Assembly: GCA_965197745.1 (NCBI GenBank)
Contig: CBDANS010000007.1
Location: 1,056,001-1,120,000, forward strand
DNA from: Opitutales bacterium
Lineage (GTDB): Bacteria; Verrucomicrobiota; Verrucomicrobiia; Opitutales; PNEW01
DNA: 64,000 nt
Reading direction: 5' to 3'
Each line of letters starts with the position of its first letter. The first letter of the stretch is position 1. A program made the translations under genes and the position numbers. A model generated the notes under the pieces. That model saw only the letters and a list, made by a program, of their open reading frames with translations, searched no databases and was not told the DNA's origin. Shown here piece by piece: positions 38,493 to 61,342 of this stretch.

Positions 38493-38853
38493 GGTATCAG
38501 TATTCGGAACCCCAACAATACTTTAATCGCTCTATTGCCTGGCGAAGGCTGCGCGCTGTAGTCCCGCAAACGCGGGACGAAGACGGGCATTTCGTGTACG
38601 TCAGCCGTTTACGCAATAAATTACGCCTTAATCTTGACGAAGGGCTATCTTCGTCGCATTGCCCGTGTTCAGGGGAGGGGGCCCTCAAACACCCCCCCTA
38701 AATCATCCAATTGAAAAACCCATACACGGAATATACCCCTTCCTACCCCAAGGGGATTCAACACTAGCGCAGTGCTGGTGAGTGCTGTGAAGCCGTGAAG
38801 GGGTTTTGATAGGTGGGGGTATTACCTGGATACCCCTCTCAATTATTTCCTCA

Positions 38854-41800
38854 CTAATCCAACCCTAGAATCTGCTTTCGTTTTCGCTCAAGTACAATAA
38901 AACGCGGCTCTTTCCGGAGGAAGTCAAAATGTAGCAAATAGAGAGGATAATATTTCTCCTCCTCATAGGCTTGTTCAAGCGCTTCTAAGGTCTTTTCCTT
39001 CTGGCCTAAATTGGCGTAAAGGAAACGTGTCCAATTCAATTTTGCAAAAATAATTTCCAACTCTGGTGTAGCAGACACGGGCTTACCTGTACGCTTATGC
39101 TCTTCTACGAGCGAAACATAGTGCTGCATAGCTTCTTTATTTTCACCTGTAAGCTCAGCCCAGTGAACATACTCGCGTGTGGCATCCTCATACTTTTTTG
39201 CATGAAGATACGCAGCCCCTAAATGTAACCATGTAGTAGCGTTGTTTGAGTCCAGCTCAAGCGATCTCTGCAACTGATTAATAGCCACGTCGTATTGCCG
39301 CGATACTAAGAGCGTTATTCCTAGCATAAATGAGTAATGGGCTGAAAAGGGATCAAGTTCATAAGCCTTTCTCCTTTCATTAAGAGATTCGTCTAAGCGA
39401 TCCGTCAGATATAGCACACTCGCATAGAAGTGGTACGTCGGCGCATACTTTGGATTGAGTTCAATCGCACGCTGAAACTCCCTTTCAGCGCCTTTAAAGT
39501 CTTTCAGAAAATAGTCCTTATAACGCCCCATAGAAGCATGGGCTTCAGCAAGGTTCGGGTCGAGCGCTAGTGCCTTCTTCGCCACTTCTTCGGCTTGTGC
39601 TTTTACATCGCTTTTTTTAACACTAGCTATTTTCATAGGAAGAAAATTATAAACATCCGCGAGCCCAGAGTATGCTAGGGCGTAGTTGGGATCCAAGGCA
39701 ATGGCTTCTTTGAAGTGTTTCATCGCGGCCATTAAATCTTCATCAGTCTGCTGGAAATTTTCACCCCGTTTGTTCCAACGATAACGCCCTAATAGGTATG
39801 CGTTGTAGGCTTCGGTGTTCTCAGTATAGTGCTTTACCAGAGGCGCACCCGCTTCACCCATAAGCTCAACATGAAGAGATTTGGCAATCGCCTGAGAGAT
39901 TTCATCCTGGATGGCGAAGACATTTTTCAGCTCCCTGTTGTAGGTTTCTGACCAAAGATGATGATCGGGTTACGTAAACTGGTCCACCGAGAGAGTTAGT
40001 CTGGAGAGGTTAATGTTGAAGTTAAGTTGGTAGAGGAAGTCAAGGCTTGGGCGCAATGAGGGCGTAGCCCGAATGGAGCCCAAGCCTTCGGTATTAATGT
40101 CTTCAGCGAAGCACCGTGGGGTGATATTGCCGAGGCTGCGGTGGGGTCGGACATTATTGTAAAGCCAGCGCCAGTCCTCGATCACCACGCGGGCTTCGGT
40201 CAAAGTCCATAGCTGTTCACGGTTTAAACACTCCTCGCGAAAACGGGCATGCAACGATTCGATGTATCCGTTCTGCCAAGGGCTTCCTGGTTCGATATAG
40301 AGGGTTTTGATTTTCATCGCAGTTAGCCAGGCTCTCAATTCCTTTTCAATGAATGGCTTCGCATGTCGTCGCTTCGCTCCTCGGAACGGAACCGTTGTCA
40401 CTGCGAATATATTGTGGCGGCCCATGACGGGCAAGCAGTTTTTGCATGATACCGCGCACCGTTTCCGCATTGATATGGCGATCAACATGGATCACTCGAC
40501 ACTCGCGGGTGTACTCATCGAGCACGGTCAACATTTTTAAACTGCCACCGCGGACCGTCTTATCGTGGATAAAATCCCAGGTCCAAACATGGCCGGGATG
40601 TTCGGCCTTGGTCGGCAGCCCGGTGGAAACACCCCTGCCCCGACGTCTTGGCTTGCGTTGGGGGATCGCCAAGCCCAGTTCGCGTCGTAGACCTTGCACG
40701 AGACGTTTACCCACCTCCCAGCCTTCGTCTTTCAACAGCTTCGTGATCTTCGGATAGCCCCACCTGGCATATTGCCGTGATAACCGCCTTACTGCCGCCT
40801 TCAGTTTCATTAACCAAGCATCCGGATGCTTCGCCTTATACGCATAGGTGGAACGGTGCAGCCGAAAGTACCGGCACCCCGCTCGCATCGAACACTGGCC
40901 CCGAGCCACAAGTCTCTCTGCCACTTGCCGCTTGTGCCCAGGGCTTACAGTTTTTTTTCGAGGGTCTCCTGCAGGATCTCTATCCCCAGCATCTTGTCCG
41001 CCAGCATCCGTTTTAACCGCGCGTTCTCCTTCAAAGAGTTCCTTCATCCGCTTGGCCTGGTCGACATCAATCATCCCAAACTCACGCTTCCAGCGGTGGA
41101 AAGTCTGTTCGCTAATGTTGTTCTCGCGGCATGCTTCCAGGATCGTTTTCCCTTTGTCCGCCTGCCGCAGCATCCGTATTTTCTCTTCAGTTGTGTATCT
41201 TTTGCCTTTCATTGTCTGAGTCCTTTCTAGGTTACCCAGACTAACTTTTCAAGTGTACCAGTTTTCGTGGTCACGACCAATGAAAACCATCAGCAACATT
41301 TATAAGCTGTGTCGTGATGCGGAGGTCGTTTCCTGATTTACGCACACTCCCTTCAAGCACCGTTGCAACTTTGAGTTGTTCACCGATTGATGGGATGTCT
41401 AAATTTTCTTCCTTGAATCTGAAGGATGAAGTTCGCGCAGCTACGTGCATACCTGCAATCTTGGTAAATGCATTAATGAGCTCCTCCGCCATCCCCTCAC
41501 AGAAGTATTCCTGATCTTTATTCGGACTCATGTCGTGGAAGGGAAGGACAGCGATGGACTTTATTACAGACTCAGGCTCAGGTGCTTTTCTTAATATTAA
41601 ATAACCGATGACAGTTACCGCTAATAGCAATAAAGGGATCAGTCCCCCCAGGGCTACGTTCCGCCATGTGAAAATCTTATGTCGATGAACCTTTTCCTCT
41701 GTGCCCCCTTCTGTTGCAGCGTCATCAGGATCTGTCTCCTTGGGCTTCGCCCTTTCCTGGACAAACGCGGTAGCCACAACCATTGGGAAGCCGACAAGGA

Positions 41801-41963
41801 GCAACACTATTGCCATAGTTGGTGACCACTCGGGCAAACCGAGACTGGTCGTTAGATGCTGAACGACCTGCAAGACGATCCAGCTGCCAACAAGGTAGAT
41901 TAATATCACCTGCCAAAGTGAACGTCGATGAATCTCGTGTATAAGCTGGGTTAAGCTAGGCAT
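38854..41963 (-). pseudogene. membrane-anchored TolB-like/TPR protein interrupted by IS3
   Basis: Removing the IS restores …DGFHLWSETYNRELKNVFAIQDE, matching paralog 48399..50417. Confidence 0.9.
39962..41279 (-). mobile_element. IS3-family element copy 3 (1318 bp, ATGA target duplication)
   Basis: IRs TGATCGGGTTACGTAAACTGGTCCAC / TGGTCGTGACCACGAAAACTGGTACAC; ATGA at 39958-39961 and 41280-41283. Confidence 0.95.
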
Positions 41964-42233
41964 GGCTATTGCAGCAAAAGATGGCGAATGCTTGAGAGGA
42001 ACTGGGTCGTTAGTCTGAAGCCATTGCCTTAAACTGTAAAGGATGAAGCAAACGGCTATGTGAAGGGGCTATCTCACAGCTAACCATTCTCGAGCTTTGA
42101 AGAGCAATGAGCGCAAGAATGAATTTTTTGATCTTAATAAAACCTTGAAACCAACATCAAATGTTATATTTCTAGGAGGAAGCAGACGTTAGACTGCGGG
42201 GAGACTGAAAGTCACACTTGTGGAAGACATAAA

Positions 42234-43236
42234 ATGACTGAAACTGATGGGTTAATTTGTGCCTATATATTAGACGGCAAGGGCGGTGGTCACCGTATAG
42301 AGTCTTTGCAGCGTCTCACACAGCCGCAGGAGGGCTTTCTCTGGGTTCATCTGCAAAGAACTGGCAAGGAAGCACGGGCGATGGCTATTGGAGAAAAGCG
42401 GTCTAGATTTAGTCATGTGCAACGCTCTGATCGGAACCACAGAAATGTCCACGGAACAATGGATCAAGGAAGGGCATCCCCATAGTATATTTTATAAGAG
42501 CGGTGTCTCGATAATCCTGCGAGGGGTTAACCTCAATCCAGGTGCTGACGTGAACGATATGGTCTCGATCCGTGCCTGGTTTGACTCGGATAAAGTCATT
42601 ACAGTAAGGGAACGCCATATCAAAGCGATCGACGACATCCGGGATCGCATTGCCGAATCGAAGGGTCCGATAGGGCCTGCGGATTTCATGGGTTTACTCG
42701 CTGGACGACTTGGCGATCGAATATCCGAAGCGCTCACAAGTCTACGGGAGGAGATAGACGACTTGGAAGAGGCCGTCATCATCGAACGAGCACCAGCGGT
42801 GGGCAAAAAACTCGGTTCATTGAGGCGGCGAGCCATCGCAAAGCGGCGGCACCTTCTCCCGCAACGCTATGCTTTGTTACAGCTTGCGCAGGAGAAGTTA
42901 TCTTGGATTGAAGATCACCATCGAGCACAGCTCCAAGACATCGCAGACCGCACAGCCCGGCAGGTAGATGATCTTGACGCACTGAGGGAGAGAGCTGCCG
43001 TTATCCAAGACGAGATCATGAACCAACTCTCCGCACGGCTCAACCGCACCATGTATTTGCTGTCTGCCATCGCGGCGATCTTCCTCCCGTTGAGTTTACT
43101 TACGGGACTGTTCGGCATTAATCTCGGGGGTATCCCTGGACGCGACTGGACATGGGCGTTCCCAATCGCTTGTATCGTCTTAGCTCTCACAGCGATTATC
43201 GAAGTGTGGCTTTTCCGGCGTTGGAAGTTGTTCTGA
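42234..43236 (+). pseudogene. zntB: ZntB/CorA-family transporter with a +1 frameshift near 42378
   Basis: N-terminal LDGKGGG…LWVHL; LRGVNLNPGA…MVSIR; FLPLSLLTGLFGINLGGIP. An extra G in GCACGGGCGATGG shifts the frame. Confidence 0.8.
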
Positions 43237-43447
43237 ACTTCCCTCAGGCTACAACACAGGGCATTATAGGAGACAGACGGAGGGGTTCAATAAACCTCTT
43301 ACAGTTTAATGTTCTCGAGCGCTGAAGAGTGATGAGAGCGTTTTGATGGGCTGGGGTATACCTGGGATACCCCTTGGACGATTTAACAGTTCAGATTGCT
43401 ACCAAATTTTAAGAAATCTTAAACTTATATGAGAGGGTGTGCACTCT

Positions 43448-43741
43448 TCAAACTACTTTATTGATAATATTCCCTATCTCATCAGCCGAAAAGGCCCGCA
43501 GTGTTTGCGTCCGAACATTCCCCAACGATCCGACGCTTAGTCCAAGAGCAGTTATCGACTCATCGTCAGGTGCATCCATGGTTATAACTAAATCGTATTG
43601 GCCCAGAGTCCAGAATATATCTTTAACGGTAACACCAGCATCCTTCGCCATTGACTTGAAAGCTTCAGCTCGTTTTTCCGTTTCCTTAACATTGCGTATT
43701 CCCTGGTCGGTGAAATTTCCAAGCACTATATAATTTGCCAT
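43448..43741 (-). CDS. GYD domain protein
   Basis: FTDQGIRNVK…WTLGQYDLV…GNVRTQTLRAF. Confidence 0.9.
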   Translation of the reverse strand: MANYIVLGNFTDQGIRNVKETEKRAEAFKSMAKDAGVTVKDIFWTLGQYDLVITMDAPDDESITALGLSVGSLGNVRTQTLRAFSADEIGNIINKVV

Positions 43742-44120
43742 TTTGAACCCCCTTTATTGATGTTATATTGATTACCAGTCACAGTTAAATATTACCCTTT
43801 AAATGTGAAAATCAAGTAATGGGGAAAGGAATATAATTGTCACCCCCCACAAATCCCCCAAGCCCTACCTTCATGTTCTCAAGCCACAGCTAGCGGTGAG
43901 AGCGTTTTGATGCCACTTTCGCTAATGAGGATGGCATTGACATCAGTGTTACAGTGGAAGAGATGGTGATTGAGTAATCCTAGCTTTAATTTCCACTGCT
44001 TTCAGGACGCAGAGTTTCCCCTTTACCTATGCGGGTTTCAGGGGCAGTTGCCAGAAAACAGAATATTTGGCAACTATTGTGAATTTTCAACTACTCGCGA
44101 TAGGTTCTGAGATCAAAATG

Positions 44121-44510
44121 TTAATTTATATTTTTGCTTTGGGAAAGCATTATTTTGATTACTTTCTTAACATCATTCGATGATAGAATGGAATGAAGAG
44201 ATCTAATAAATTCTTCTTCATTTTCGACTTTATATTCTTCATTTGATATTTCGTTAAAAATTTTTAGAGGATAAAGAAAAAGTGGCTGTTCAATACGGAG
44301 CACGGTTACACTATAGTCGTCTAAATTTTGTGCTAAGATATCAAGTCTGATAGTGATTGTATTTGCAGATATGATGGGCCAAACTTGTCCTCTAAGAGTT
44401 CCATTTGTCTGTGTTCCTAAAATTTCTGCTTGCTTTTTGAGTATTGTAAATGGCGGTGTTATGTCATCACCAGTTGGCAGATCACCCCATAAATTTTCAT
44501 CTTTATTCAT
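44121..44510 (-). CDS. hypothetical protein
   Basis: AT-rich, protein-like ORF (LWG…ILKKQA..L..QT.G.L.G). Confidence 0.7.
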   Translation of the reverse strand: MNKDENLWGDLPTGDDITPPFTILKKQAEILGTQTNGTLRGQVWPIISANTITIRLDILAQNLDDYSVTVLRIEQPLFLYPLKIFNEISNEEYKVENEEEFIRSLHSILSSNDVKKVIKIMLSQSKNIN

Positions 44511-44602
44511 GATAGCACCATCCTTTCTATCTCAATTTCAAAATCAAGGGGAAAATGGTCATCGCCAATGTCATAATGCGTATGATCGAGGTCAAACGTA
44601 AA

Positions 44603-44789
44603 GGGTCAGACTGCGAATTCTTTGATTTTATTCAAAGTTCTGTAGGCTTTACTTCTGTTCTTCTGCTCACGCCGAAAGATACTAACATAGAGTTCGTCGT
44701 TACTTTCAATCCTTGGCTTTCGAGCCATTCTCTCGCAATTCCAGTTCTCCCATAGTTTCTTATAAATCAAAGAATTCGCAGTCTGACCC
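44603..44789 (-). mobile_element. internally deleted Y1/RAYT-like transposase element (MITE) with 26-bp perfect IRs
   Basis: IR GGGTCAGACTGCGAATTCTTTGATTT; 40-codon ORF 44606..44728 beginning MARKPRIESNDELY. Confidence 0.75.
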
Positions 44790-46362
44790 GAATGGCGTTA
44801 AGATAAGGGATAGAATGAGTGCAATAGATGCTTGTACAGGGACCGTTGGAGAGCTACCCTAACGAGCATGCAAAAACAAAACTTAACTCGTTATTTTCCA
44901 GGATTTAATCAGGTCCTGTTCGGTCGTGCTCCCCGAACAGCCCTTGCACAGATGGAGGGTAAGCTGGTAGAAATACGGCGGTCAAGTCTTTCCGAGCTAT
45001 CGGATATCTTCGGGCAGTGGGTGCCGCAAAAGTATTTACACCGGAAGCCTCGAGGGGCTAACAGCCGGCGGAGATTGTTCAGCCAAAACGTGACCTTCTG
45101 GGCATTTTTGTTCCAAGTGCTCTCACCACGGACTGCCTGCCGGGAAGTGGTGCGCAAGCTCCAGAGCTATTGCAGCATGAAGGGGCTGAAGTTGGCTAAA
45201 GGAACGGCCTCGGCCTACTGTCAGGCGAGGCAACGGCTGTTGGTGCAAGACCTGCACGGGATCCATGAAGCGATCAGTGAAGAGGTGGCCGGGAGAGTGA
45301 CCGACGATCAACGGTGGAAAGGTCACGAGGTAAAAGTGGTCGACGGCACGGGTATCGCCACCGCCGATACGCCGTGCTTGCAGAGGTGTTACCCACAGCC
45401 TTCGCAGCAACGAAGCGGCTGCGGCTTTCCGGTGGTGAAGCTGGTGGGCTGTTTTTCTTTAGCCAGTGGGGCGCTTTTACACTGGATGGAGTCCTCACTA
45501 AGGCATCATGACAGTGTGCTGTTGCGGGGCATGATCGGATTTTTTCAAAAGGGTGATGTGGTCCTTGCCGACCGGGGATTTTGCTCTTACCTCAATATTG
45601 CCCTGCTTAAAGGCCGCGGTGCTGAAGCGGTCATGCGTTTGCATCAGCAACGAAGAAGCGACTTTCGTCAGGGCAGGTCCTTGGGTAGGTATGACCGGCT
45701 GATCATGTGGAAGAAGCCGCAAAATGTCTTCGGCTTCAGTCGCGAGCAGTGGCGGCAAATCCCTGATGAGATCCCCGTACGGCTGGTGAAGATTTTCATT
45801 TTCATCAAAGGTTTCCGCGCCCATAGCGTAGACCTCGTGACTACCTTGAGCGATCCTCACCAATACTCCCACCACGATCTCGGAGAATTATACTATCGGC
45901 GCTGGGCAGTGGAGCTTTACTTTCGCCACATCAAAACCACCATGGGGATGGAGATCCTGCGCTCTCGCTCGGTCGCTCTCGTGCGCAAAGAGATTGCGAT
46001 GTTTGCCATCGCCTACAATCTCTCATCCGCGCTCTTTTGCAGCAAGCTGCCAGTGCCTTCCACCGCGACCTCTCCCGGCTAAGCTTCAAGGGGGCTGTTG
46101 ACACCCTCCGCCAATATCAAAGTGCGCTCGCGGCCACCCGGTTTAATCCCAGAGCCCAACGATCTGTCATTGACGAGATGATACACCTCATTGCCCTCGA
46201 ATCGGTCCCCCTACGTCCCTTCCGATACGAACCAAGAGTCCTCAAACGTAGACCTATACCTTTCCAACGATTGACTCATCCACGAGCCATGATGACCGTC
46301 TCTGCTTCACGAAAAAACAAAGGCTTTTATCATCCTAAACCACCCTTATCTTAACGCCATTC
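44790..46362 (+). mobile_element. IS4-family element; transposase frameshifted near 46020
   Basis: 20-bp perfect IR GAATGGCGTTAAGATAAGGG; 11-bp TSD CAGTCTGACCC; VVDGT, ADRGF and YYRRWAVELYFR.IK motifs. Confidence 0.95.
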
Positions 46363-46543
46363 CAGTCTGACCCTATTTCTTCTGCCCAGCCACAGCACAG
46401 TGCTGGTGAGTGCATATCAAGGCGTGAGGACGTTTTGATTGGGAAGGTATACGCCTAGATACCCCTTGATCTAAAAAAATGCTCAATATATTTTAGTTCT
46501 AAGAGAAGCAAATTAAGATAGATACAGAAGGAGGTGAACGACC

Positions 46544-46942
46544 ATGAGGAAAGAAGAAAATGTAAACATAGTGCGGGAAATTTACGCGAACTTTGGTCGG
46601 GGGAACATCCCTAGCATACTGAATGTCCTAGCGGATGATATTGTGTTTAAGCAGCCGACAGCAGGTCCATCACCGCTTGCTGGCACTTATCATGGACCTG
46701 AGCAAGTCGGAGAATGGTTTGGCAAGTTGGATGAAGTGGCAGAATCTCAGAACTTCGAGCCTCGAGAGTTCATCGCTCAGGGAAACAAGGTAATCGTCCT
46801 AGGTTACTACAAGTTTCTGGCAAAACCCACAAATAAAACATGGGAAGCTGAGTGGGTGATGGTATGGACTTTCAAAGAGAGCAAGGTAGTAGGGTTCCAG
46901 TTCTTCGGTGATACTGCTGCTGAAACCGCAGCTTTCTCATGA
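46544..46942 (+). CDS. SnoaL/NTF2-like protein
   Basis: ENVNIVREIY.NF.RGNI…GTYHG…FIAQG.KVIVLG; GGAGG RBS. Confidence 0.9.
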   Translation: MRKEENVNIVREIYANFGRGNIPSILNVLADDIVFKQPTAGPSPLAGTYHGPEQVGEWFGKLDEVAESQNFEPREFIAQGNKVIVLGYYKFLAKPTNKTWEAEWVMVWTFKESKVVGFQFFGDTAAETAAFS

Positions 46943-47035
46943 AGCTAGTTTCTCCCAGTCTTAACTTAGTATTCTCGAGTACTGAAGAGCGATGACGACG
47001 TTTTTATGAGTGGGGGTATACCTAGGGGATCCCCC

Positions 47036-48370: not shown

Positions 48371-48398
48371 AACCTAACATACCCCTCTCAAATATAAC

Positions 48399-51163: not shown

Positions 51164-51850
51164 ATGCAATCTAAGGTTGGAGCTGTTTCTGCAATTGCAG
51201 GAGCTATTATTCTGCTCGTTGGAACTTCCCTACATCCTATGGAGGAAGATCCAAACGATCCAGTTGCCGCATTTACAGAATACGCAGATGACTCACTGTG
51301 GGTAGGCAGTCATTTAACTCAGTTACTAGGCATCGTTTTAATTGTAGCAGCACTTCTTACACTAACCCACCTATTGACTAATGATAAAGGTGGCGGGTGG
51401 TCACAGTTTGGCTCAGCGTTTGCTATTTCTAGTTTGGCCATTGCAGCGGCTCTTCAAGCTGTAGATGGTATTGCGCTAAAGGTGATGGTAGACAATTGGG
51501 TGGCTGCACCAGAATCAGAGAAGATGGCTATTTTTCATGCTACAATTGGCGTCAGGCAAGTTGATGTAGGACTGGCCAGCATGTTCAGTATGTTTATCGG
51601 TTTAACTGTGGTGCTGTATGGTGTATCTATTGTGATGACCGATCGGTTTCCGAGCTGGCTAGGGTTGATCGCAATCTTTGGTGGCGGTGCGACAGTAACA
51701 GCTGGTGTAATGTATGCGTATACGGGGTTTTCAAAAGTAGCAATGTCTGTAAGCATGCCAGCAAGCTTGTTACTATTGCTTTGGTTGATTGTTCTTGGGG
51801 TAAGAATGTGGCGAGTAAGTAACAAATGTAATATTACACCCCATTCATAG
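51164..51850 (+). CDS. DUF4386-like membrane protein
   Basis: Multi-TM protein; LHP…W.GSHL.QL…AVDGIALK…P.WLG. Confidence 0.7.
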   Translation: MQSKVGAVSAIAGAIILLVGTSLHPMEEDPNDPVAAFTEYADDSLWVGSHLTQLLGIVLIVAALLTLTHLLTNDKGGGWSQFGSAFAISSLAIAAALQAVDGIALKVMVDNWVAAPESEKMAIFHATIGVRQVDVGLASMFSMFIGLTVVLYGVSIVMTDRFPSWLGLIAIFGGGATVTAGVMYAYTGFSKVAMSVSMPASLLLLLWLIVLGVRMWRVSNKCNITPHS

Positions 51851-52126
51851 CTTACCATTCTCGAGCGCTGAAGAGTGATGAGAGCGTTTAGTTAGCAGAG
51901 GGTATAGCTTATTTACCTTCAGTGACAAAACGCTGTGGTTACTCGCTGTCGCTGTTCAGAGGTAAAATAAATGCTATATCTATGACCCCTTTTAGCCTTT
52001 CTTTGTTCAGGGGTAAAATTGATTCTGCATCTTTGACCCCTTACAACTCCTCAACATTGACATCATTATCCGCATACGCGAATATACAGAACTTTAGAAC
52101 CACTTGTTATCCCACGAGAGCCGACG

Positions 52127-53059
52127 ATGGTTATTGACTGCGAAACACACATATTCCCACGGTGCTTTGATTATCGTCGCTGTCACGTTGAGGACCAGCT
52201 CGAGGATATGAATCGCTGCGGCGTGGATCGGACCTTCCTCACGTTCTACTGTGACAGTACGCTCACCTCGCCATGCGGGGAGATCACGGATCCCAGTATC
52301 AAGCGGTTCGGTGACAGTGATGCGGAAGTCTGGGACTACTTCAAGGAATCATGGCTCGCGCATCAAGATAGATTCTTCTTCTTCAGTGTTCCCGATCCTC
52401 GTGAGCCGGACTGTATCGAACGACTCGAGGAGCAGTGCGAACTTGGGCTCCACGGCATCGGAGAAACCCAGCCGGCAACGCAGAACATTTTTCCGAATGG
52501 TCCCGAGTTCATGCGTGTATATCGGTTCGCGGCTGACAGAGGATTGCCGGTTGTGCTGACCATGGAACGATGGGAGGAGTGCCTGTGCTTTCGCGGCAGA
52601 TACTTCGATGAGTTCTTCGACATGTTTGAGCAAGTGATCCGGGAGTTTGAGGATGTCCGGTTCATGATCGGCCACAGCGGCGATTGCGGCAGTGTCCGTT
52701 CAAAGGATTGGGATACCTACCTGGAAAGCAACCTGCGGTGCTACGAATTGGCTGCAAAGCTGGACAATGTGTGGGTCTGCTCATGCATGCCATGGTGGTT
52801 TGCCGACAACAAGGTCAATCCTCTCCTGGAACGACAGGTCAGGTTCCTTAGAGACCACGTGGGCTTCTCGAAGGTGACATGGGGCAGTGACTGGCCGTAC
52901 AACGGTAGTGGTACGAGCTTCTCCTTCAGGAGTGACTACGGGACGGTGGTCGATTACTACCGTAACCTGCCATTCTGCAGTGAGGAGGAACTGGAGAGCC
53001 TCCTTGGCGGAGCGGCTTATGAGTTTGTCACCGGCCACAAGATCGACTCCGACAGCTAG
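52127..53059 (+). CDS. amidohydrolase_2 family metal-dependent hydrolase
   Basis: IDCETHIF, GIGE, IGHSG and WGSDWP motifs. Confidence 0.85.
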   Translation: MVIDCETHIFPRCFDYRRCHVEDQLEDMNRCGVDRTFLTFYCDSTLTSPCGEITDPSIKRFGDSDAEVWDYFKESWLAHQDRFFFFSVPDPREPDCIERLEEQCELGLHGIGETQPATQNIFPNGPEFMRVYRFAADRGLPVVLTMERWEECLCFRGRYFDEFFDMFEQVIREFEDVRFMIGHSGDCGSVRSKDWDTYLESNLRCYELAAKLDNVWVCSCMPWWFADNKVNPLLERQVRFLRDHVGFSKVTWGSDWPYNGSGTSFSFRSDYGTVVDYYRNLPFCSEEELESLLGGAAYEFVTGHKIDSDS

Positions 53060-53218
53060 GAAGACCCGCGTGGGTCAACCGATGCATAGTGCACCGGTTG
53101 TCCCAAATTACTAGATCGTCCGGCTGCCATCTGTGTCGGTAGACAAATTGGGGTTGTACTGCTAACGCAGTAAGCTCTCTCAGAATACGCCTGCTCCCCC
53201 GATCAAATTCAAGCGGCC

Positions 53219-53992
53219 TTAACCTTTAGGACTCACCGCTTTCTTCTCCAGTACTGCCTGGTAGCGATCCGTTTTAAATACGGCCTGATTGAGAGTTTCG
53301 TTTTTGCAGGTAACCTCACCCGTTACCCAATGGGTGACGTAGGCGCGACGCCAGCGATCTGAATAATTGCGGTGTGAACTGTGCAGCGTTTGAATTTGAT
53401 GAAATACAACACCCCCTTTATGGACAGGAGCCAGTCCTTCATTCTTCATTTTAATATCCTCTTCTCTCGGTAAGAAGCTGTGCGGCTCAGCGGCTGATTT
53501 TTGGTAGTGAGGTATAATTCCTACTTTGTGTGACCCACTGATATAGCGCAGGCATCCGTTTTCTTCGTTTACATCGTCGAGCGCGATCCACGCGGTAATA
53601 ACATGATCTGCGGGAAAGCACTGGTAATGAAAGTTATCCTGGTGATAAGGTACGGGGCCTCCGTGATGAGGGGGTTTCAAGAATACCTGATCCTTTAACA
53701 ACAATGGAGTGTCACCTAAGAACTCCTCAATTACACTATTAAAACAGTCGTCTAAAACAAATTCTTGAAATGAAGGATGCTTGAAATATGGATTTGTAAT
53801 TTTACGGGGAATGACCTCCCCGCTTTCCAGTCGTTCCCCGGCTATGGCAGCTACATCGGGGCTTTTTATTTCTTCTTCAATTATCGTCGTCGCTGTCTTC
53901 GCTATACCGTCCACAACGGCATGATCAAATACCCCTTCGATCACGACCCATCCTTTTTCCAAATAGTGATCCATCTGTTCTTGAGTAACCAT
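53219..53992 (-). CDS. PhyH-family Fe(II)/2OG dioxygenase
   Basis: YHQD, WIALDD…NGCL..I.GSH, LHSS..N.SDRWRR. Confidence 0.92.
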   Translation of the reverse strand: MVTQEQMDHYLEKGWVVIEGVFDHAVVDGIAKTATTIIEEEIKSPDVAAIAGERLESGEVIPRKITNPYFKHPSFQEFVLDDCFNSVIEEFLGDTPLLLKDQVFLKPPHHGGPVPYHQDNFHYQCFPADHVITAWIALDDVNEENGCLRYISGSHKVGIIPHYQKSAAEPHSFLPREEDIKMKNEGLAPVHKGGVVFHQIQTLHSSHRNYSDRWRRAYVTHWVTGEVTCKNETLNQAVFKTDRYQAVLEKKAVSPKG

Positions 53993-54293
53993 TTCTGAGC
54001 CCTTTTTCGTTTTATAAAAAATTTATCTTTTAATAGTGAGACTTCAATAATTAAAATCCAGATCGCTTTTATTCTCGGGGAAGGGGAGGAAAAGGGGTCA
54101 ACATTGACAACATTACCAGCATACGCAAATATACAGAACTTTAGAACCACTTGTTGAGCGAAGGAAGATCAGAGCTAACACACAACAGCAAAAAGGAGGA
54201 CAGATGATGCAAGATTCAAATAGCGTCGTCGAGCCGCCGCACTCCATGGAACAGCCGCTTGCCGGGCCCGATCCCCGAGAGTAAATAACCACC

Positions 54294-55511
54294 ATGAACC
54301 TGACTTTGGAGCAAGGACAATTTTACGACGAAAACTGTTATCTCGTCGTAAAGGGGGCGTTTACGGATGAAGAGTTGGAGCGCCTGGATCGTGGAGTGTA
54401 CGGGGCGGTCACATCCGGCAATTGCAGCAGCTGCGGAAAAGTCTATCCGGCGCCAGAGACTTTGTATATTGTTGAAGGACAGTACCAGGACGATCCGGAC
54501 TTGTTGTTGATTGGCGAGCATCCGGCCGTTACCGGTCCGGTCGAATCGCTTCTTGGCGGTCACGCCTGTCTATCGGCCTTCGTTTCTTACTTGAAAACGC
54601 CCGGAGCCGTCGGCACCAGTGGCGATTACCAGGGGAGTCACCCCACCGGGCACTGCGACTACAAAACCTACCAGCAGGCGGGTTCGTCGTTCAACTGGCT
54701 ATTTGCGATTATTCCGCTCACCGATCTCGATGAAGAGACCGGGTCGCTACTCGTTTCCCCCGGCTCGCACAGGGAGTCGAAGATCGTGCCGGTCACCGAC
54801 AAGGTTAGCGAGGTCCATCGCGCGCAGGCGTCCGACATCGCGCCGTTGATCGATGCGGAACTGAAGCGGGGCGACCTTTGCTTTATGCACGAGTTCACCT
54901 GGCACGAGGGCAAGGGCAACAGTTCCAATCACGACAGGTACGGGATCTACCTCAAGTACCGGGCCGTCAATGCACCGCCGGGATGCGGCCCGCAGTTGTT
55001 TCGCGAGAGAGCTTTCTCGGCGTTCAGCGAGGCGGGCAAGCGATTTGTGCCGCATCACGGGGGCCGGTCTTTTGCGGAGGCGCGGTTGATTATCGATCAT
55101 GGGGGAAATTTCCTGCTCGTGGAAGGCGATGCCAGGGATTGGAAACTGCCGGGTGTGGCTCCGCTGGAAAAGCTAGTGAAGGAGTCGGTGACGGCCGATG
55201 TAATCAGGCAGCTGGATATGTTGCTACAGAAGAAATACGGTCTCGAGATCCCGTGGATGACTTACATTGCCGATTATCGCAACGGGGACGGCGTCCGCCG
55301 GGTATATGCCTACCAGGACAGCGGAGGGGCAACGGCCGCTCGCACACCCGGGCTGGAGTTCCGGTGGTGCAGCGGTGAGGAAATTCGGGCTCTCGCCGAC
55401 AGTGGAAAACTGGAGTCCGAAGACGCGGTTGCGATTCACCGATGGGAAACCGAGGGTTGCGTGCGCGGAGTCGGCGAATCGATGGAGCGCGCGAAGAAGT
55501 TCGCTCAGTAG
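54294..55511 (+). CDS. PhyH-family dioxygenase with C-terminal extension (degenerate NUDIX-like)
   Basis: GHCD, PLTD…GSL.V.PGSH, WH…N.S..DR; C-terminal LLVEG…WKLPG. Confidence 0.8.
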   Translation: MNLTLEQGQFYDENCYLVVKGAFTDEELERLDRGVYGAVTSGNCSSCGKVYPAPETLYIVEGQYQDDPDLLLIGEHPAVTGPVESLLGGHACLSAFVSYLKTPGAVGTSGDYQGSHPTGHCDYKTYQQAGSSFNWLFAIIPLTDLDEETGSLLVSPGSHRESKIVPVTDKVSEVHRAQASDIAPLIDAELKRGDLCFMHEFTWHEGKGNSSNHDRYGIYLKYRAVNAPPGCGPQLFRERAFSAFSEAGKRFVPHHGGRSFAEARLIIDHGGNFLLVEGDARDWKLPGVAPLEKLVKESVTADVIRQLDMLLQKKYGLEIPWMTYIADYRNGDGVRRVYAYQDSGGATAARTPGLEFRWCSGEEIRALADSGKLESEDAVAIHRWETEGCVRGVGESMERAKKFAQ

Positions 55512-55539
55512 CAACAGCCAACGGCGAAATCTATGCTAT

Positions 55540-55696
55540 CGGGGGAGGTAGAGGAGATTACCCTCGCCTTATCCAATGATATAGAAGGTGAAGTAACCTG
55601 TCACTATATCCAGGAGACGATCATTGGTAAACAACCGCTTAAAGTAACCCGTATAGGATTCGGTTTGCCCAGCGGTGGGGGCATTGTCTATGCCGA
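55540..55696 (+). pseudogene. diverged duplicate of the recR 3' portion (~38166..38322)
   Basis: EVEEITLALSNDIEGEVTCHYIQETIIGKQPLKVTRIGFGLPSGGGIVYA. Confidence 0.9.
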
Positions 55697-55725
55697 CCCG
55701 AAACCCGCATAGGTAAAGGGGAAAT

Positions 55726-55770
55726 TCTGCGTCCCGAACGCAGCGCTTTACCGGGCTGAGCTACACCTCG
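55726..55770 (-). pseudogene. 5' half of tRNA-Pro(CGG)
   Basis: CGAGGTGTAGCTCAGCCCGGTAAAGCGCTGCGTTCGGGACGCAGA has a D-arm and anticodon arm but no T-arm or 3' end; TTGACA lies upstream. Confidence 0.75.
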
Positions 55771-55936
55771 CTTAATACAGGGTAATACTTATATTACTTT
55801 TTAAAGTGTCAACGAAAGTAAATATTTACGGGGTGCTCGTATAATTCATTGATTGCCATTTACCATAGCGACCATGATCAGCCTTCGTCCCGCGGTAGTT
55901 TGACTAATGTAAGGCAGGGTATAGATTTATCCCTAT

Positions 55937-56073
55937 GTCATTGCGAGGATCCCGCAGCTGCGGGAGACGCGGCTACCGATGGCAAAGTCCGACATCTTCC
56001 ATTCCAGGCGAATGAATGTACGCAACCGACATCCCCCTGGATCGCCACGGCTGACAAGCAGCCTCGCGATGAC
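55937..56073. repeat. GTCATTGCGAGG…CCTCGCGATGAC palindromic element (RPE/BIME-like)
   Basis: Terminal inverted repeats with internal hairpins. Confidence 0.7.
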
Positions 56074-56168
56074 AAATAGGATGCAAACTAGATCTGCTTT
56101 AATTTCGCTACAGTAGGACTACGGCTGTCAGGTAGTCTGCTCCACCTAATGTTAATTAATAATGTAAA

Positions 56169-56252
56169 GAGGTGGAACGCGGTGTCCCTACCGCGTTATA
56201 TATTTAAATTGTAGTGATAAAATAAGTGTGCTGGGACAGCCCGCTCCACCTC
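56169..56252. repeat. inverted pair of GGTGGA-type REP elements (related copy at ~62763..62787)
   Basis: GAGGTGGAACGCGGTGTCCC… versus …GGGACAGCCCGCTCCACCTC. Confidence 0.6.
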
Positions 56253-56308
56253 ACTTAATTGCGTAACACTTTAAACTTAATACTTAAAACTGATCGATAG
56301 ATCACACA

Positions 56309-58285
56309 TCACTCGATCGTGATCTCATCAATAGCCACGGTAATCTCGTCACCGTCCTCGTTGGCGAAAGTGGCGTCGATACTCTGTGTCGGCTGAGGTG
56401 TTTCGTCGGACTTGAAGTTGTTCTGGGTGATCAGGGTGTCAAACCCGGTCGTTGTTGAACCACTCTCCGCGACCACGACCGCGACGCCGTTTGTCTGCAA
56501 GAGGTCGCCACCGGTGATCCGCAACCCAGGGTTGCCCGCCGGTATCGTGAAGGACCCATCAGCGAATAAGATGTGGGGCACCGCATCGCCATCAGCATCA
56601 ATGTCGCCGATGGTTAAGCGTACCGCGATCGGTACGCCCCGTGCATCGAAGCCCACCTTGCCCGTGCTTCCACTGAACACGGCATTCGATAACTGTACCC
56701 CTCCCAGTCCCGTGGAGTTGACTACTTCCACGAGGGCCACATCGGCCTGGGCGTCATAAACCTGTCCTTCGGGGAACAGCGCCTGGTTAAAGGCGTTGAT
56801 CCTGCCCACCGTGAAGATGCTGAAAAAGGTGTTGGCGTCCGCTCCGTCGATGACTACGCTCGGCTTACCCGTCACATACTCAACCTGCTGGTTGTAGCGT
56901 GGGGGAATGGCCGGGGGCAGGAAGGTGGCCGGGTCGAGGGTTACGGTAAAGGTACCGTTGCCTGAGAATTCTACCTGTACAATGTCCTCGTTTTCATCCA
57001 TGAAGGAAACGCGGGTGATCTGTCCCGTTTTGACCTGCAGTTGGACGGACTCACCGGTGAGTAAAATCTGGTCGAAGACATTACCGTTGGCATGCTGGAT
57101 ATCTTCTCCGGCAATATCACCTGAGCCGTCGAGGACGAGGGGCACGGAGGGAGCGGCCACGGTGATGACCGCGGTATCGCTGTCGGGTGCGCCGATAGGG
57201 GTAAACCCAAAATCATCGATAGAAATAAGTTGAAAACTGCCGCTCGTATCGGTTTCTGCACTATTAGTATAAGTAACTTTACCAATTCCACCTGGGGCCC
57301 CTAATTCAGCGGCATTGAAATCAAAAAAAGTGAAAGGGACAATAGATGCAATATTGATACTTTGCGGGATTTCATCTGTCGAGGTAAGCAAAATGTCTTC
57401 GGTGTCAAAAACATTGATCTCTCCGTCACCCGAAATAAAGGAGGCGGCGTAAAACTGAACTTGAGCAGCCGGTGTTTCAAAGGTGATCGTCCCTGTCGTG
57501 TCGTTGAGTACCGCCCAGACTGCCCGACCGTCATTTCTAGAGAAATCAATGGGTAAAGAGTGATTGAATGCTGGTATATCAAAAACAACTTGCGCTATCC
57601 CGCCCGTAAAAGTGACAGTAGCGGGAGACTGACCGAGGGTAAAATTAACTCGGGCGGTGAAGTCACTCAGGACAGGATGAATGTTTAATCCCTCAAAATC
57701 TTCGAAAAGAGTATTGTTCGGCGGTCCTACCACATAAGTGAATCCAAGATCATCGAGGGAAAATTGCCCCGTTACGTTAGTGACCTTTAGTTCTATAACG
57801 CCGTTCACAAAATTGAGATCCGAAGTGTCCTGGGCATCTCCACTAAAGGCGGTGAAACTTTGAAATGCGGGACTAACGTCAGGGTTAATATTAGTCGGTA
57901 GTCCCTCAGCTATACCTTGCTCGGTTATAACTTGAAGACCCCTTTCTCTTAACTCGATCCTTCCCGCGCCATCTGTTTCAGCCGCATAGAACTGGAGGTG
58001 ATTGACCCCTCGTTCAAAAATAATTTTTCCCTCCTGTGCGCCTGGGACAAGGACCAATGCCTGGGTACCCGAATGGGCGAGATTCGGGTTGTCTACGGTT
58101 TCCAGGGTAAAGTTAATTACCCGGATAGTGAAGGGGGATTCGCCAATGACAAATTCAGTTCCCTCCACGGTTACTCCTTCAAAATCGATGAAGGTTTCAA
58201 GGTCTTGGGGTAGGGCATAGAGACACACCGGTAAATAGAGCAAAAGAATCAGAAGCGGAATTATTTTTATGGGTTTTATTTTCAT
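56309..58285 (-). CDS. secreted protein: two beta-rich repeats plus the shared C-terminal domain
   Basis: Signal peptide; internal repeats (DFEG…QFYAA…DD.GFT); C-terminus homologous to ORF 2..1081. Confidence 0.85.
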   Translation of the reverse strand: MKIKPIKIIPLLILLLYLPVCLYALPQDLETFIDFEGVTVEGTEFVIGESPFTIRVINFTLETVDNPNLAHSGTQALVLVPGAQEGKIIFERGVNHLQFYAAETDGAGRIELRERGLQVITEQGIAEGLPTNINPDVSPAFQSFTAFSGDAQDTSDLNFVNGVIELKVTNVTGQFSLDDLGFTYVVGPPNNTLFEDFEGLNIHPVLSDFTARVNFTLGQSPATVTFTGGIAQVVFDIPAFNHSLPIDFSRNDGRAVWAVLNDTTGTITFETPAAQVQFYAASFISGDGEINVFDTEDILLTSTDEIPQSINIASIVPFTFFDFNAAELGAPGGIGKVTYTNSAETDTSGSFQLISIDDFGFTPIGAPDSDTAVITVAAPSVPLVLDGSGDIAGEDIQHANGNVFDQILLTGESVQLQVKTGQITRVSFMDENEDIVQVEFSGNGTFTVTLDPATFLPPAIPPRYNQQVEYVTGKPSVVIDGADANTFFSIFTVGRINAFNQALFPEGQVYDAQADVALVEVVNSTGLGGVQLSNAVFSGSTGKVGFDARGVPIAVRLTIGDIDADGDAVPHILFADGSFTIPAGNPGLRITGGDLLQTNGVAVVVAESGSTTTGFDTLITQNNFKSDETPQPTQSIDATFANEDGDEITVAIDEITIE

Positions 58286-58458
58286 GCTGTTATAACGATT
58301 AAATCGAGGCCAGAGATGTGGCGAGGAAATTGCGCTTTCGGAAAACTCGATGGCCTTTCTTGAAGCAGTTAAACTTTACTTTTCCTCTCGATTGCCACAA
58401 TAATTGTAATAGTATGCAACAGTTTTTTAGCCGGTTAGAAAAATCCATTATGGAGTGA

Positions 58459-59274
58459 TTGATTATGACGCCTGAAGAAAGATATTTATTCGACCTCCAA
58501 GGTTACCTTTTCATCCCACAGGCGATACCGAGTGATTTGGTGCAGCGAATGAATGATGAAATTGACAAGCTGGAATCTCTTAATGATGAGGAGGCAGCCG
58601 ATCTGGGAATAAGTCGGAAGTATCACGATGATCTCAAGTCCGGATGGAATGAGATATCAAAAAAGAATCAATCACGCGATTACGATTGCAATTTATTGCG
58701 CTGGGGAGGTCCTTTTGAGGAGATAATCGATTGTCCTCGGACTCTTCCCTACATCGACGCGATGATTAATGAGCCTCTGCGCCTCGATGGATATATGTTT
58801 ATGACACGCAATCAGGGGCACTGCACCAAATTACATCACGGTTATGCTGAGCTTTTATCTTACAGTGAATATGCCATTGATGAAGGGCAGTTTAAATGTG
58901 TGAGTGTAAAAATTTCCTACGCACTCAGGGATGTTTCTACCGAGGAGGGTTCATTCGCCGTTATTCCGGGAAGTCACAAAAGCAATTTTAAAAATCCATT
59001 TGAAAGAGAGATACCCGATGAAAATCACCCTTTAATTGTAGCCTGTCCCTGCAAAGCGGGTGATGCGGTCATTTTCTCTGAAGATCTCACTCATGGATCA
59101 TTAGTCAATAAAAGCAATAGGGCTCGCCGCACCCTCTTCATCTCTTACGCCCCGGCATTTCAAAGCCCCTGGGGTAAACTGGTGGATACCGCGGACGGTT
59201 TCGAAGATAGAGCTACTCCCAAGCGATTGGAATTGATTAAAGGCCCTGCACCATTTGCCATCGCGGGGACTTAA
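58459..59274 (+). CDS. PhyH-family dioxygenase
   Basis: YLFDLQGY, LHHG, VIPGSHKSNF, THGS…N…RR. Confidence 0.9.
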   Translation: MIMTPEERYLFDLQGYLFIPQAIPSDLVQRMNDEIDKLESLNDEEAADLGISRKYHDDLKSGWNEISKKNQSRDYDCNLLRWGGPFEEIIDCPRTLPYIDAMINEPLRLDGYMFMTRNQGHCTKLHHGYAELLSYSEYAIDEGQFKCVSVKISYALRDVSTEEGSFAVIPGSHKSNFKNPFEREIPDENHPLIVACPCKAGDAVIFSEDLTHGSLVNKSNRARRTLFISYAPAFQSPWGKLVDTADGFEDRATPKRLELIKGPAPFAIAGT

Positions 59275-59378
59275 CCGACGACCTGCAGAACTACCCAACT
59301 GCCAATAAGGTAGATTACTATCACCTGCCAATGTGAACGTCGATGGATCTCGTGGATAAGCTGGGTTAATCTGGGCAT
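59271..59378 (-). pseudogene. 5' fragment of a third TolB-TPR paralog (with its upstream region to ~59500)
   Basis: [34 protein letters not shown], then stop. Confidence 0.85.
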
Positions 59379-59560
59379 GGTAAATGCAGCAAAAGATGGC
59401 GAATGCTTGGGAGGAACCAGGTCGTTAGGCTGAAACCATTAGCTTAAACTGTAAAGGATGAAGCAATCGACTGAGTAAGGGGGGCATTTTGACCCAATCG
59501 TTTTCAAGCCGTAGTAAGAGGAAACTCTATGGGGTCGGGGTGTAGTCTTAACTTTTATTA

Positions 59561-60400
59561 TTAATTATTCATCGCTTCGATAAAGCCCCAATCATCTAAC
59601 CATTTTATCCAGCGTGCTCGCTTCTCACTGCCATCGGGATTTTCCAACCACCACGGATGATAGTATGGCGAATCGTGCAAATCCATTCTCGAACTGATGG
59701 ATTTGGCATTTTCCGCCAGCGCGCGCAGTTCCTCTTCTTCTTGAGCCGTCTTTGGATTGCTGTAAAAAGCTAGTGAACAGTTCCTGCGGTCTTCATAACC
59801 CCCAAAAGCCGCGTGCCATAATCTCTGGTTAAAAGTGATGACATCACCCGGCTGCGAACAGAATATATAAGCGGGGATATCTTCACCACGCATGCCCGAC
59901 TCATTTCGAAATGTTTCTTCGTTATCATCAGATATACTCAACCCTATGCGAATCAGTTCATCGAATAAGGGACTAATATGCGAACCCGGAATTAAACGCA
60001 ATGATCCGTGGTCACCGGAGGTGGGTTGCAGATAGGTGAGGTTTTTGAGACCGCGAATATGCCGCTGTATCATATCCGGGTGCCAGAGGGTGTCATGTCT
60101 ATAGCTGTGGGCATTGGAATACACGGGGACCGTGTCTTCTCCTTGTAATTGCTCCGTTGGCACACAAATGCGCGGATCTTCCAAAAGACCCGCCATTAAT
60201 GGTGTTTCTGGAATGAGGTTAGACCAATTAGGCCATTTACGGGTACGGAGATCTATCTTTTTATCAAAATCATCTTTAATCGTGTCGAGATGCTGATCGA
60301 ACTCCTTGTTGATCCGGTCAATTTCCTCGCGGCTGAAGACCCGGCGACGGATAAGAAAACCGAAGATTTCAAAATGCTGGATCTCTTGTTCGGTGAGCAT
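59561..60400 (-). CDS. PhyH-family dioxygenase
   Basis: FEIFGFL, WHPD, LRLIPGSH, WHAAFGG..DRR. Confidence 0.9.
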   Translation of the reverse strand: MLTEQEIQHFEIFGFLIRRRVFSREEIDRINKEFDQHLDTIKDDFDKKIDLRTRKWPNWSNLIPETPLMAGLLEDPRICVPTEQLQGEDTVPVYSNAHSYRHDTLWHPDMIQRHIRGLKNLTYLQPTSGDHGSLRLIPGSHISPLFDELIRIGLSISDDNEETFRNESGMRGEDIPAYIFCSQPGDVITFNQRLWHAAFGGYEDRRNCSLAFYSNPKTAQEEEELRALAENAKSISSRMDLHDSPYYHPWWLENPDGSEKRARWIKWLDDWGFIEAMNN

Positions 60401-60715
60401 GACTTTCCTAAGGGGTTGAATTTATTTATGAGGCAAAATAGAACTTGAAACAACTTTATTTGCGTTTCCAACTAACCAGCGCTGACTCATAATTACTCTC
60501 AGGCACAGCGCAGTGCTGACGAGTGCTGTGGAGGCGTGAGAGGGTTTTTAGAAGTGAGGGTATACAAATTAGATACCCCTTGCGTAAAAAAGAAGATATA
60601 GAATATTTAGCGGTTACTCTTATAATACCTGGCGTGATAGAAGATCAACTCTGAGCTAGAGAAAAGCATAGTAAGAAACCAATTAATGAGTCACTAAATA
60701 TAAGGAAAAATACCA

Positions 60716-61126
60716 ATGTCTATACGTGTGTTTGGATGTAATCATATCGTTCTCGAAGTCGGTGATCTCGATAAAGCAATCGAATTTTACACTGACGTTT
60801 TTAATCTTGAGCCAAAAAATGAAGGTGAAGGTGATGCTTTTTTCCAACTTGGCAATCATCAGTTCTTAGCACTATTTCATTCTGATGATCCTCACGTTGA
60901 CAAGCATAGACATTTCGGCCTCATGGTTCGAGATGACGCACAAGTTTCAGAAATTCGTGAGAAGATTAGTAAGAAATATGGATTAAAGACGATTCCGCCG
61001 TTTCGGTGTGATTTCCGAGACCCTTGGGGAAACCGGATTCAAGTGGTTGACATGCATGATGAATCGACTGCTTGGCTACAGCCATACGAAGAGGTTCAGA
61101 AGGTCGGCGCAAAACTGCCAGAATAA
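60716..61126 (+). CDS. VOC/glyoxalase family protein
   Basis: NHIVLEV.DL.KA.EFY…HFGL…FRDPWGNRIQVV. Confidence 0.92.
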   Translation: MSIRVFGCNHIVLEVGDLDKAIEFYTDVFNLEPKNEGEGDAFFQLGNHQFLALFHSDDPHVDKHRHFGLMVRDDAQVSEIREKISKKYGLKTIPPFRCDFRDPWGNRIQVVDMHDESTAWLQPYEEVQKVGAKLPE

Positions 61127-61342
61127 TTTCATGCTATCCTACAGCTTAGTGCGAGGGCATGCTGTAGCTATGTGAGAGGGTATATTTTGACTGGGGTATA
61201 CCTGGATACCCCTTGAAGGGTTACTCAAACAGCACTTCTTCCACAGTGACAGAGATTCCCTGACCAAACTCGTTTATGAAAGTAGCATCGATGCTCTGTG
61301 TTGGCTGAGGACTGATCAGGTGGATAATGTTCTGAAACACAA

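Follow-up and report, generated by a model that had tools for sequence, protein, structure and literature searches.

How does a row of otherwise unrelated small genes come to be separated by copies of one short repeat, all on the same strand, in a genome that has no integron integrase? The locus that raises this question lies in an Opitutales genome (herein G000; 4.45 Mb, 7 contigs, 92% complete). The window, meaning the whole 64,000-nucleotide (nt) stretch analyzed, is C7:1056001-1120000 of that genome, and coordinates without a contig name refer to it. A first-pass annotation, made from the letters of the stretch alone, had described a gene-cassette array delimited by a hairpin repeat downstream of a tRNA-Gly gene and had read it as a distinct capture and shuffling system. 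We find that the repeat, ~85 nt long, belongs to a single bacterial family, and that several differences in gene content between related genomes break at its copies. We put at about 0.5 the probability that it is a lineage-restricted extragenic element, similar to the repetitive extragenic palindromic (REP) and neisserial intergenic mosaic elements (NIME), used passively as a recombination joint in tRNA-linked islands where recent gene exchange has been heavy.

Anatomy, strand, and position of the repeat

Copies were located with a de novo repeat search, an iterated nhmmer profile, and a covariance model (R1); the last is effectively a sequence model, and its matches agree with those of nhmmer. 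The models detect 10 copies (eight full, two partial) at 38756-61220. All eight copies that the first-pass annotation had called full were recovered by three methods, within ~20 nt of where it had placed them. Its partial copies fared unevenly: those at 42068-42115 and 43857-43931 are model-detected, whereas sites at ~50525-50600 and ~59485-59560 and a 3′ stub at 48379 are missed by both models and were accepted by eye and from their register with the copies that the models detect next to TPR paralogues or orthologues. All 10 model-detected copies lie on the + strand (two-sided p = 0.002), and the covariance model finds none elsewhere in the window, both as first described. The genome holds 26 copies. 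They are not spread evenly, as a generic repeat or terminator might be; 10 of the 26 fall within 22.5 kb, or 0.5% of the genome (binomial P = 5e-17). Outside the window the copies are single and scattered, apart from a loose second cluster at C7:1.46-1.51 Mb, and a profile scan of the whole genome reveals no third cluster.

Three parts make up the repeat. A 5′ hairpin, which varies, is joined by a conserved linker (GAGAGCGTTTTGATGGGCT) to a 3′ hairpin with the stem GGGGTAT/ATACCCC; the 3′ hairpin is followed by TTGAAGG in the sense direction or AGCCCATCAAAAC in the antisense direction, with no T-run. The 5′ part forms one of two alternative small hairpins. In an alignment of the 17 best G000 copies the mean per-column identity is 66%; the 3′ stem, paired in 86.6% of cells, is real, and the 5′ stem is paired in 65%. 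The loop is variable, as first noted, with lengths of 3 to 14 nt in the 49 copies with a detectable stem. A compensatory change highlighted in the first-pass annotation (CACAGC/GCTGTG versus TACAGC/GCTGTA) is present in the 5′ stem, but covariation overall is no higher than in the shuffled controls (44 and 57 of 500 shuffles attain the values observed), and RNAalifold returns no consensus structure for the 17 copies. Across 67 copies from three genomes and one metagenome contig, a GGGGTAT-type stem of at least 5 bp is kept in ~24; many copies are clearly decaying. Conservation is higher in the linker than in the stem. A permissive Rfam scan of 36000-64000 yields only tRNA above threshold, with no ribozyme, intron, or small RNA family; two matches elsewhere in that region are at chance level.

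The position of the repeat is extragenic, with no copy inside a long open reading frame (ORF). Copies occupy the short spacers that follow genes and may point the same way as the gene or against it, and the tight spacing to stop codons first reported is borne out: 16 of 29 fuller copies have the stop of an ORF of at least 80 amino acids (aa) within 70 nt on at least one side. Several fill the entire gap between convergent genes; for the copy at 46953-47042, for example, the distance is 16 nt from the preceding SnoaL stop and 3 nt to the monooxygenase stop that follows. The intervals between repeats in the window array span 0.4 to 8.5 kb and include genes on both strands and insertion sequence (IS) elements.

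Co-orientation extends beyond the window. Among adjacent copies <10 kb apart in three genomes, 24 of 27 pairs are co-oriented and 3 are opposite (p = 5e-5; the pairs are not independent, as some are paralogous or orthologous); three co-oriented copies on the metagenome contig L065 are additional to these pairs. An orientation switch occurs in the related genome G001 at 1.506-1.513 Mb, where the orientation changes from three − copies to four + copies. Of these seven repeats, six stand antisense behind the neighboring gene, on both arms, so that orientation there tracks gene direction; the seventh is sense behind a recombinase gene. This gene (239 aa; C1:1509400-1510116, L031:11401-12120) lies between two inverted repeats at the switch, and its product is an IS607-like serine recombinase by a weak assignment (47.5 bits versus a cut-off of 110). 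With respect to replication, the copies at 12 loci follow positive GC skew and those at 6 run against it, a difference that is not significant.

Integron tests and breaks at repeats in related genomes

By integrase, core motifs, and folding, the repeats are not attC sites. The statement that the window holds no IntI is correct and extends to the genome (best TIGR02249 match 80 bits versus a cut-off of 265); tyrosine recombinases near the arrays in G001, G002, and the window all fall far below IntI cut-offs. Neither strand of the window, over its whole length, has complementary RYYYAAC/GTTRRRY pairs at 52 to 157 nt spacing, and at 12 repeat sites the two core motifs never occur together on one strand. 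Folded as single-stranded DNA, 19 copies form two separate local hairpins, with termini that mostly do not pair together. Like integrons and clusters of attC sites lacking integron integrases (CALIN), the array has co-oriented, structured repeats and cargo that varies between related genomes at one locus; the units between the repeats may also be mostly single, compact accessory genes, although the intervals are of uneven length and include IS elements. It differs from them in lacking IntI and cores, in having two local hairpins rather than one long one, and in its genes on both strands, varied break positions, and many decayed sites.

The repeat is present in all three other genomes of the same Opitutales family (G001, 22 matches; G002, 18; the fragmentary G003, 1) and in none of 37 genomes representing 37 other families of the order. 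G001 is the only match in a scan of a genome collection with an exact pattern. A metagenome scan returned 13 loci, with real copies in two, the near-identical marine contigs L065 and L074; in the stretches examined, L065 carries three copies and L074 two, co-oriented in each. In these scans the repeat is found only in one family of marine Opitutales bacteria. The portions of the literature covered by our search describe neither such a repeat in Opitutales nor a repeat-bounded, non-attC cassette array.

Corresponding arrays are found in G001 (C1:3609742-3625486, −) and G002 (C1:84437-101958, +), each of them co-oriented. Both open with the same TPR sensor gene (70 to 72% identity) and end near BNR/PEP-CTERM genes, and the cargo between these shared ends differs in G001, G002, and the window. 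Gene gains and losses between genomes break at the repeat in several cases, as the first-pass annotation had anticipated. A CorA transporter gene lies between two repeats in the window; the same repeats are 17 nt apart in G001. A GYD-domain gene in the window and an unrelated 85-aa ORF in G001 and G002 occupy the interval between the same two repeats, and G002 has ~17 kb extra between two repeats where G001 has one. The “empty” CorA site of G001 consists of a 25-nt remnant, 17 nt, and a repeat with an internal deletion, a structure that is not the residue of a single site-specific crossover.

The core flank of the window (hem genes, recR) is ~73% identical to G001 and G002, whereas many segments are 92 to 99.5% identical between G000 and the sister genus, which argues for recent gene exchange. 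At L008, L009, L014, and window 43877 the boundary of a segment that is 93 to 99.5% identical across genera lies at a repeat or within ~30 nt of one. The breaks do not share one position: they fall ~45 nt past the repeat 3′ end in the GYD/85-aa ORF case, at the repeat 5′ edge (L009), near repeat position 36 (L008), and near position 25 to 30. The half copy at 43857 is joined to the end of a gene of the 740-aa family (described below) through a 6-nt microhomology (TTGATG), a junction that has spread within a 0.7-kb unit to four loci in three genomes (96 to 97% identity). Such scattered positions are a misfit with one precise crossover. Segments of 1.7 to 5 kb that are 95 to 99.5% identical across genera, seen at L016:14906-19922/L052, L014:4847-6516/L042, and L012:1125-4279/L048+L034, indicate that these Opitutales lineages have recently exchanged genes extensively.

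The placement of the array downstream of tRNA-Gly holds for the window, but this link is not conserved in the sister arrays. The G001 array starts 240 nt after a tRNA-Arg gene, with its own recR-tRNA-Gly ~49 kb from the array, and the G002 stretches scanned have no tRNA beside the array. A tRNA-Ser(GGA) gene precedes both the second cluster of G000 and the metagenome-contig array. As tRNA genes precede several arrays, we regard the loci as tRNA-linked variable islands. The 3′ end of tRNA-Gly does not recur as a direct repeat in the 70 kb that follow it, and the tRNA-to-repeat spacers of the window and G001 are dissimilar.

Construction of the window array and its neighbors

The features of the window array are as follows.

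38419-38492, +: tRNA-Gly(CCC); the array starts 264 nt after it.
38756-38844, +: repeat copy 1, full; 17 nt from the TPR stop, with a G001 copy in the same place.
38854-41963, −: membrane TPR sensor gene, split by an IS3 element (39962-41279).
42068-42115, +: repeat copy 2, decayed, hairpin lost; upstream of the TPR start, matching G002 C1:84437.
42388-43236, +: CorA transporter module between two repeats; missing at the same joint in G001.
43293-43381, +: repeat copy 3, full, best-scoring; the copy and ~40 nt 3′ of it are common to G001/G002 (82 to 84% identity).
43448-43741, −: GYD-domain gene, with the 85-aa ORF of G001/G002 in its place between the same repeats.
43857-43931, +: repeat copy 4, a 5′ half fused via TTGATG to the last ~80 nt of a 740-aa-family gene.
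43877-44588, +: imported unit with ORF129 (44121-44510, −); 96 to 97% identity to three G001/G002 loci.
44781-46381, +: IS4-family element directly adjoining repeat copy 5 on its 5′ side, with a ~185-bp element just upstream.
46384-46473, +: repeat copy 5, full, detected by the models.
46544-46942, +: SnoaL-like single-gene module.
46953-47042, +: repeat copy 6, full, between the convergent SnoaL and monooxygenase stops.
47036-48370, −: FAD-dependent monooxygenase gene.
48379-48400, +: repeat 3′ stub behind the second TPR gene, recognized by eye and paralogy only.
48399-50417, −: second TPR sensor paralogue, intact.
50525-50600, +: decayed repeat upstream of the second TPR gene, alignable over its first ~25 nt with a G002 copy.
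50681-51022, +: NIPSNAP-like gene (18.2 bits, under the Pfam cut-off of 22.3).
51026-51110, +: repeat copy 7, full, detected by the models.
51164-51850, +: DUF4386 gene.
51839-51927, +: repeat copy 8, full, with a weakened hairpin; overlaps the DUF4386 stop codon.
52127-59274: repeat-free block with an amidohydrolase gene, three PhyH-domain genes, a recR 3′ fragment, and a tRNA-like fragment.
56309-58285, −: 658-aa member of the 740-aa secreted family, inside the repeat-free block.
59278-59560, +: 5′ remnant (~200 bp) of a third TPR module with a decayed repeat (~59485-59560).
59561-60400, −: PhyH-domain gene.
60497-60587, +: repeat copy 9, full, detected by the models.
60716-61126, +: VOC/glyoxalase single-gene module.
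61133-61220, +: repeat copy 10, full; next to it, ~97 nt remain of the 3′ end of a 740-aa-family gene (61218-61314, −).
61343-63990, −: right flank common to the sister arrays; its BNR gene is 87% identical to that of G001, its PEP-CTERM gene 82% to that of G002.

The array is built from TPR paralogues, IS insertions, and imports 95 to 99% identical to another genus. The TPR modules comprise two genes and one remnant, each with its own repeats; the TPR protein was considered as a hidden recombinase and rejected in view of its membrane helices and weak FlgO-like periplasmic region. Two of the three PhyH-domain genes in the repeat-free block are 95 to 96% identical to G001 or G002 genes. The SnoaL, monooxygenase, NIPSNAP-like, DUF4386, and amidohydrolase genes have no DNA-level relative in G001 through G003. 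The VOC gene has relatives in G001/G002 (86% identity) in another, repeat-free context; the homology covers the gene only and is therefore uninformative on capture. The array is unchanged in public contigs from three studies (e.g., 46344-50268, with 0 to 5 differences). Joints between repeat copies do occur in public assembled contigs, with sides of only 22 to 35 nt; most likely these are other copies of the repeat, and they are uninformative on excision.

Several further elements share the region. An internal recR fragment of 158 nt (55539-55696) is 91% identical to 38165-38322 and lies 17 kb downstream of the real recR; beside it is a truncated tRNA-like piece (55697-55770) that recurs, inverted, in the imported ORF129 unit. 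The pair looks like a scar of integration or rearrangement. A 58-nt element at 52051-52108 and 54098-54155 (93% identical), upstream of the amidohydrolase gene and one PhyH-domain gene, has about a dozen look-alikes in G001 and G002 and is possibly a common promoter or operator. As candidate enzymes we rejected the two tyrosine recombinases (427 aa) encoded at 9041-10324 and 31483-32766, both −: their genes belong to a separate multi-copy element of 2.8 kb (30102-32897 and ~7560-10380) that no repeat adjoins, and the ~70-nt end segment of this element (32825-32900) has eight solo copies on C7.

The only Y1 (HUH) transposase gene of G000 (C6:163380-163706) is flanked by a different, 25-nt inverted repeat (GGGTCAGACTGCGAATTC...). 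These ends are shared by ~185-bp elements at ~44604-44788 of the window, C6:517353-517524, and C7:30078-30248, and by the gene-flanking pair at C6:162758-163789. With only three short derivatives besides that pair, the family is small and REPIN/RAYT-like.

The 740-aa family consists of large paralogous secreted proteins of ~650 to 750 aa, with ~79 complete copies in G000; a further member lies at 251-1078 of the window. Their common C-terminal domain of 295 aa, which matches nothing in Pfam or NCBIfam, is 80 to 95% identical at the DNA level between copies in all three genomes, and in most copies the homology ends exactly at the stop codon. Six G000 repeat copies start 1 to 2 nt past the stops of such genes (6 of 79 complete gene ends), and 3′ remnants of family genes adjoin the repeat copies at 61133 and 43857. 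Other short repeat families stand behind 740-aa-family genes at C6:108338, C7:891444, and window 56180-56300, comprising GTGTTAGGTTTTAAGT-type runs, a GTCCCGC...GCGGGAC hairpin, and a GGTGGAGCGGGCTGTCCCTAGC motif; G000 is rich in small intergenic repeats. At C7:1474991-1480653 (L014/L015), two inverted units, each made of a 104-aa C-terminal fragment of the family and a repeat, bracket 4.9 kb holding an 855-aa ORF without a Pfam match.

Passive joint, RNA element, enzyme site, or transposon relic

If the repeat is a passive joint, its role would follow from its being the sole sequence common to otherwise unrelated modules. The copies would act as homology patches for general or illegitimate recombination, and modules would be inserted, deleted, and swapped there. 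A circle carrying one repeat would insert into a chromosomal repeat by a Campbell-type event and leave two direct repeats, so that co-orientation could be explained without an integrase.

By analogy, the closest counterparts of the repeat may be REP and the bacterial interspersed mosaic elements (BIME), neisserial NIME/dRS3, and Correia elements, and it would have no enzyme of its own; we see even chances that this placement is right. Like REP/BIME and REPIN-RAYT elements, the copies are lineage-specific extragenic hairpin repeats behind genes or between convergent ones. REP elements, however, number in the hundreds per genome, whereas there are 18 to 26 copies per genome here, ~85 nt long with two dissimilar hairpins, and the Y1 gene of G000 carries a different inverted repeat with its own ~185-bp derivatives. 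Neisserial NIME (dRS3/RS) and Correia elements are small intergenic repeats with terminal inverted repeats; they mark rearrangement and module exchange between strains and need no enzyme encoded nearby. The Opitutales repeat has no sequence relationship to them and no terminal inverted repeats, and its arrays are strictly co-oriented. The pdif (Xer) modules of Acinetobacter plasmids are discrete gene modules bounded by short sites (28 bp, with a fixed 6-nt spacer and alternating orientation) and served in trans by a housekeeping recombinase. The gene modules described here are likewise bounded by short sites, but these are co-oriented with loops of 3 to 14 nt, which also sets them apart from a Xer/dif-like site with two arms and a fixed 6- to 8-nt spacer.

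A number of observations count against a passive role. Copies that are ~66% alike are a poor RecA substrate, and the identical core is only 26 nt long and confined to some copies. The loci were fetched centered on repeats, which biases the count of segment boundaries at repeats. Co-orientation in 24 of 27 pairs, even if these are not independent, is a prediction of a directional site-specific system, and several intervals consist of one compact small gene of a type known from integron cassettes (SnoaL, VOC, GNAT). Finally, the IS607-like gene of G001 lies between inverted repeats exactly at the orientation switch, and 5 of 10 of its relatives are within ~6 kb of a repeat, by a hand tally for which shared island residence is a confounder.

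The best placed of the alternatives, although we judge it improbable, is an RNA 3′-end element: a palindromic hairpin that would work in either orientation as a terminator, mRNA stabilizer, or insulator, like Escherichia coli REP. Genes would then travel with their 3′ flanks, and the arrays would be rows of gene-plus-tail units. This would account for copies lying 3 to 17 nt from stops and often filling convergent gaps, for the G001 switch that follows gene direction (six of seven antisense), and for the six copies directly behind 740-aa-family stops; pairing in 86.6% of stem cells among the 17 best G000 copies fits as well. Yet a terminator scan flags no copy (its 17 terminator-like sites in 42000-61500 all differ in place from the repeats), and the hairpin has no T-run after it. 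The linker is more conserved than the stem, which is retained in under half of the copies and shows no covariation above shuffles. Only 6 of the 79 complete 740-aa-family gene ends carry the repeat, and two full copies (46384 and 60497) stand in 5′ regions.

More doubtful is a dedicated, non-integron cassette system in which the repeat is the site of a trans-acting enzyme that directionally inserts and excises single-gene circles. Co-oriented arrays in at least four genomes or contigs, single small genes between repeats, and gene swaps between the same two repeats are what such a system would leave, as are half copies that break in the conserved linker and the pairing of the same 3′ module with different 5′ modules. 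The first-pass proposal of a tyrosine recombinase or HUH/Y1 enzyme acting in trans is not supported: no recombinase is linked to the arrays, and the Y1 gene has other inverted repeats. In a variant that we find equally hard to credit, the IS607-like serine recombinase family would be the candidate enzyme, feeding the tRNA-linked islands of co-resident Opitutales symbionts; the inverted repeats around its gene at the G001 switch favor this. G000 and G002 carry relatives of that gene at 61 to 67% identity, often next to tyrosine integrases of 400 aa. None of the serine recombinase genes of G000 is repeat-flanked, its IS607-like relatives included, and the window holds no such relative; one weak partial copy lies 0.8 kb from C6:172742. 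This recombinase is a lead, not a finding.

For any dedicated enzyme it is also adverse that no recombinase lies in or beside the window array and that the nearby tyrosine recombinases are not IntI-like. Break positions vary, with one microhomology junction; loops of 3 to 14 nt argue against a fixed double-stranded core site; many copies are decayed; and the array is identical in contigs of three studies. What stands of the original cassette reading is the non-attC character of the sites, the co-oriented arrays, and the repeat-bounded differences, but not the enzyme, the precise break, or the retention of the stem.

We rate no higher the possibility that the copies are relics of a non-autonomous, IS200/IS605-like transposon with asymmetric hairpin ends, which in the past inserted strand-specifically just behind stops, the arrays representing repeated insertion into tolerant spacers. 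An ~85-nt unit with two different subterminal hairpins and no terminal inverted repeats would suit such an element, as would the 1- to 2-nt distance between a repeat 3′ end and the stop in six 740-aa-family genes, the decay of most copies as after an old burst, and the mild strand bias toward positive GC skew (12 loci versus 6). That bias is not significant, however; no longer element with these ends is present among the 26 genome matches, no clean filled-versus-empty site was found, and the only Y1 transposase has other ends with its own small derivatives. A Y2 transposase gene was not found in G000, a weak negative given that the control of the search was uninformative. The dissimilar ends without terminal inverted repeats are unlike miniature inverted-repeat transposable elements, and there is no cognate Y1 element with the same end hairpins, as there would be for palindrome-associated derivatives of IS200/IS605. 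Insertion alone, moreover, fails to explain different genes between the same two repeats.

Were the cassette system real, gene-cassette capture would have been solved a second time, independently. If the repeat is instead a passive joint, a small repeat would organize modular gene exchange between genera that share a habitat, without integron machinery. This would aid the reading of flexible islands in uncultured Verrucomicrobiota and counsel caution in calling repeat-bounded rows of genes integrons. The repeat copies are a practical marker of recently exchanged parts of these genomes.

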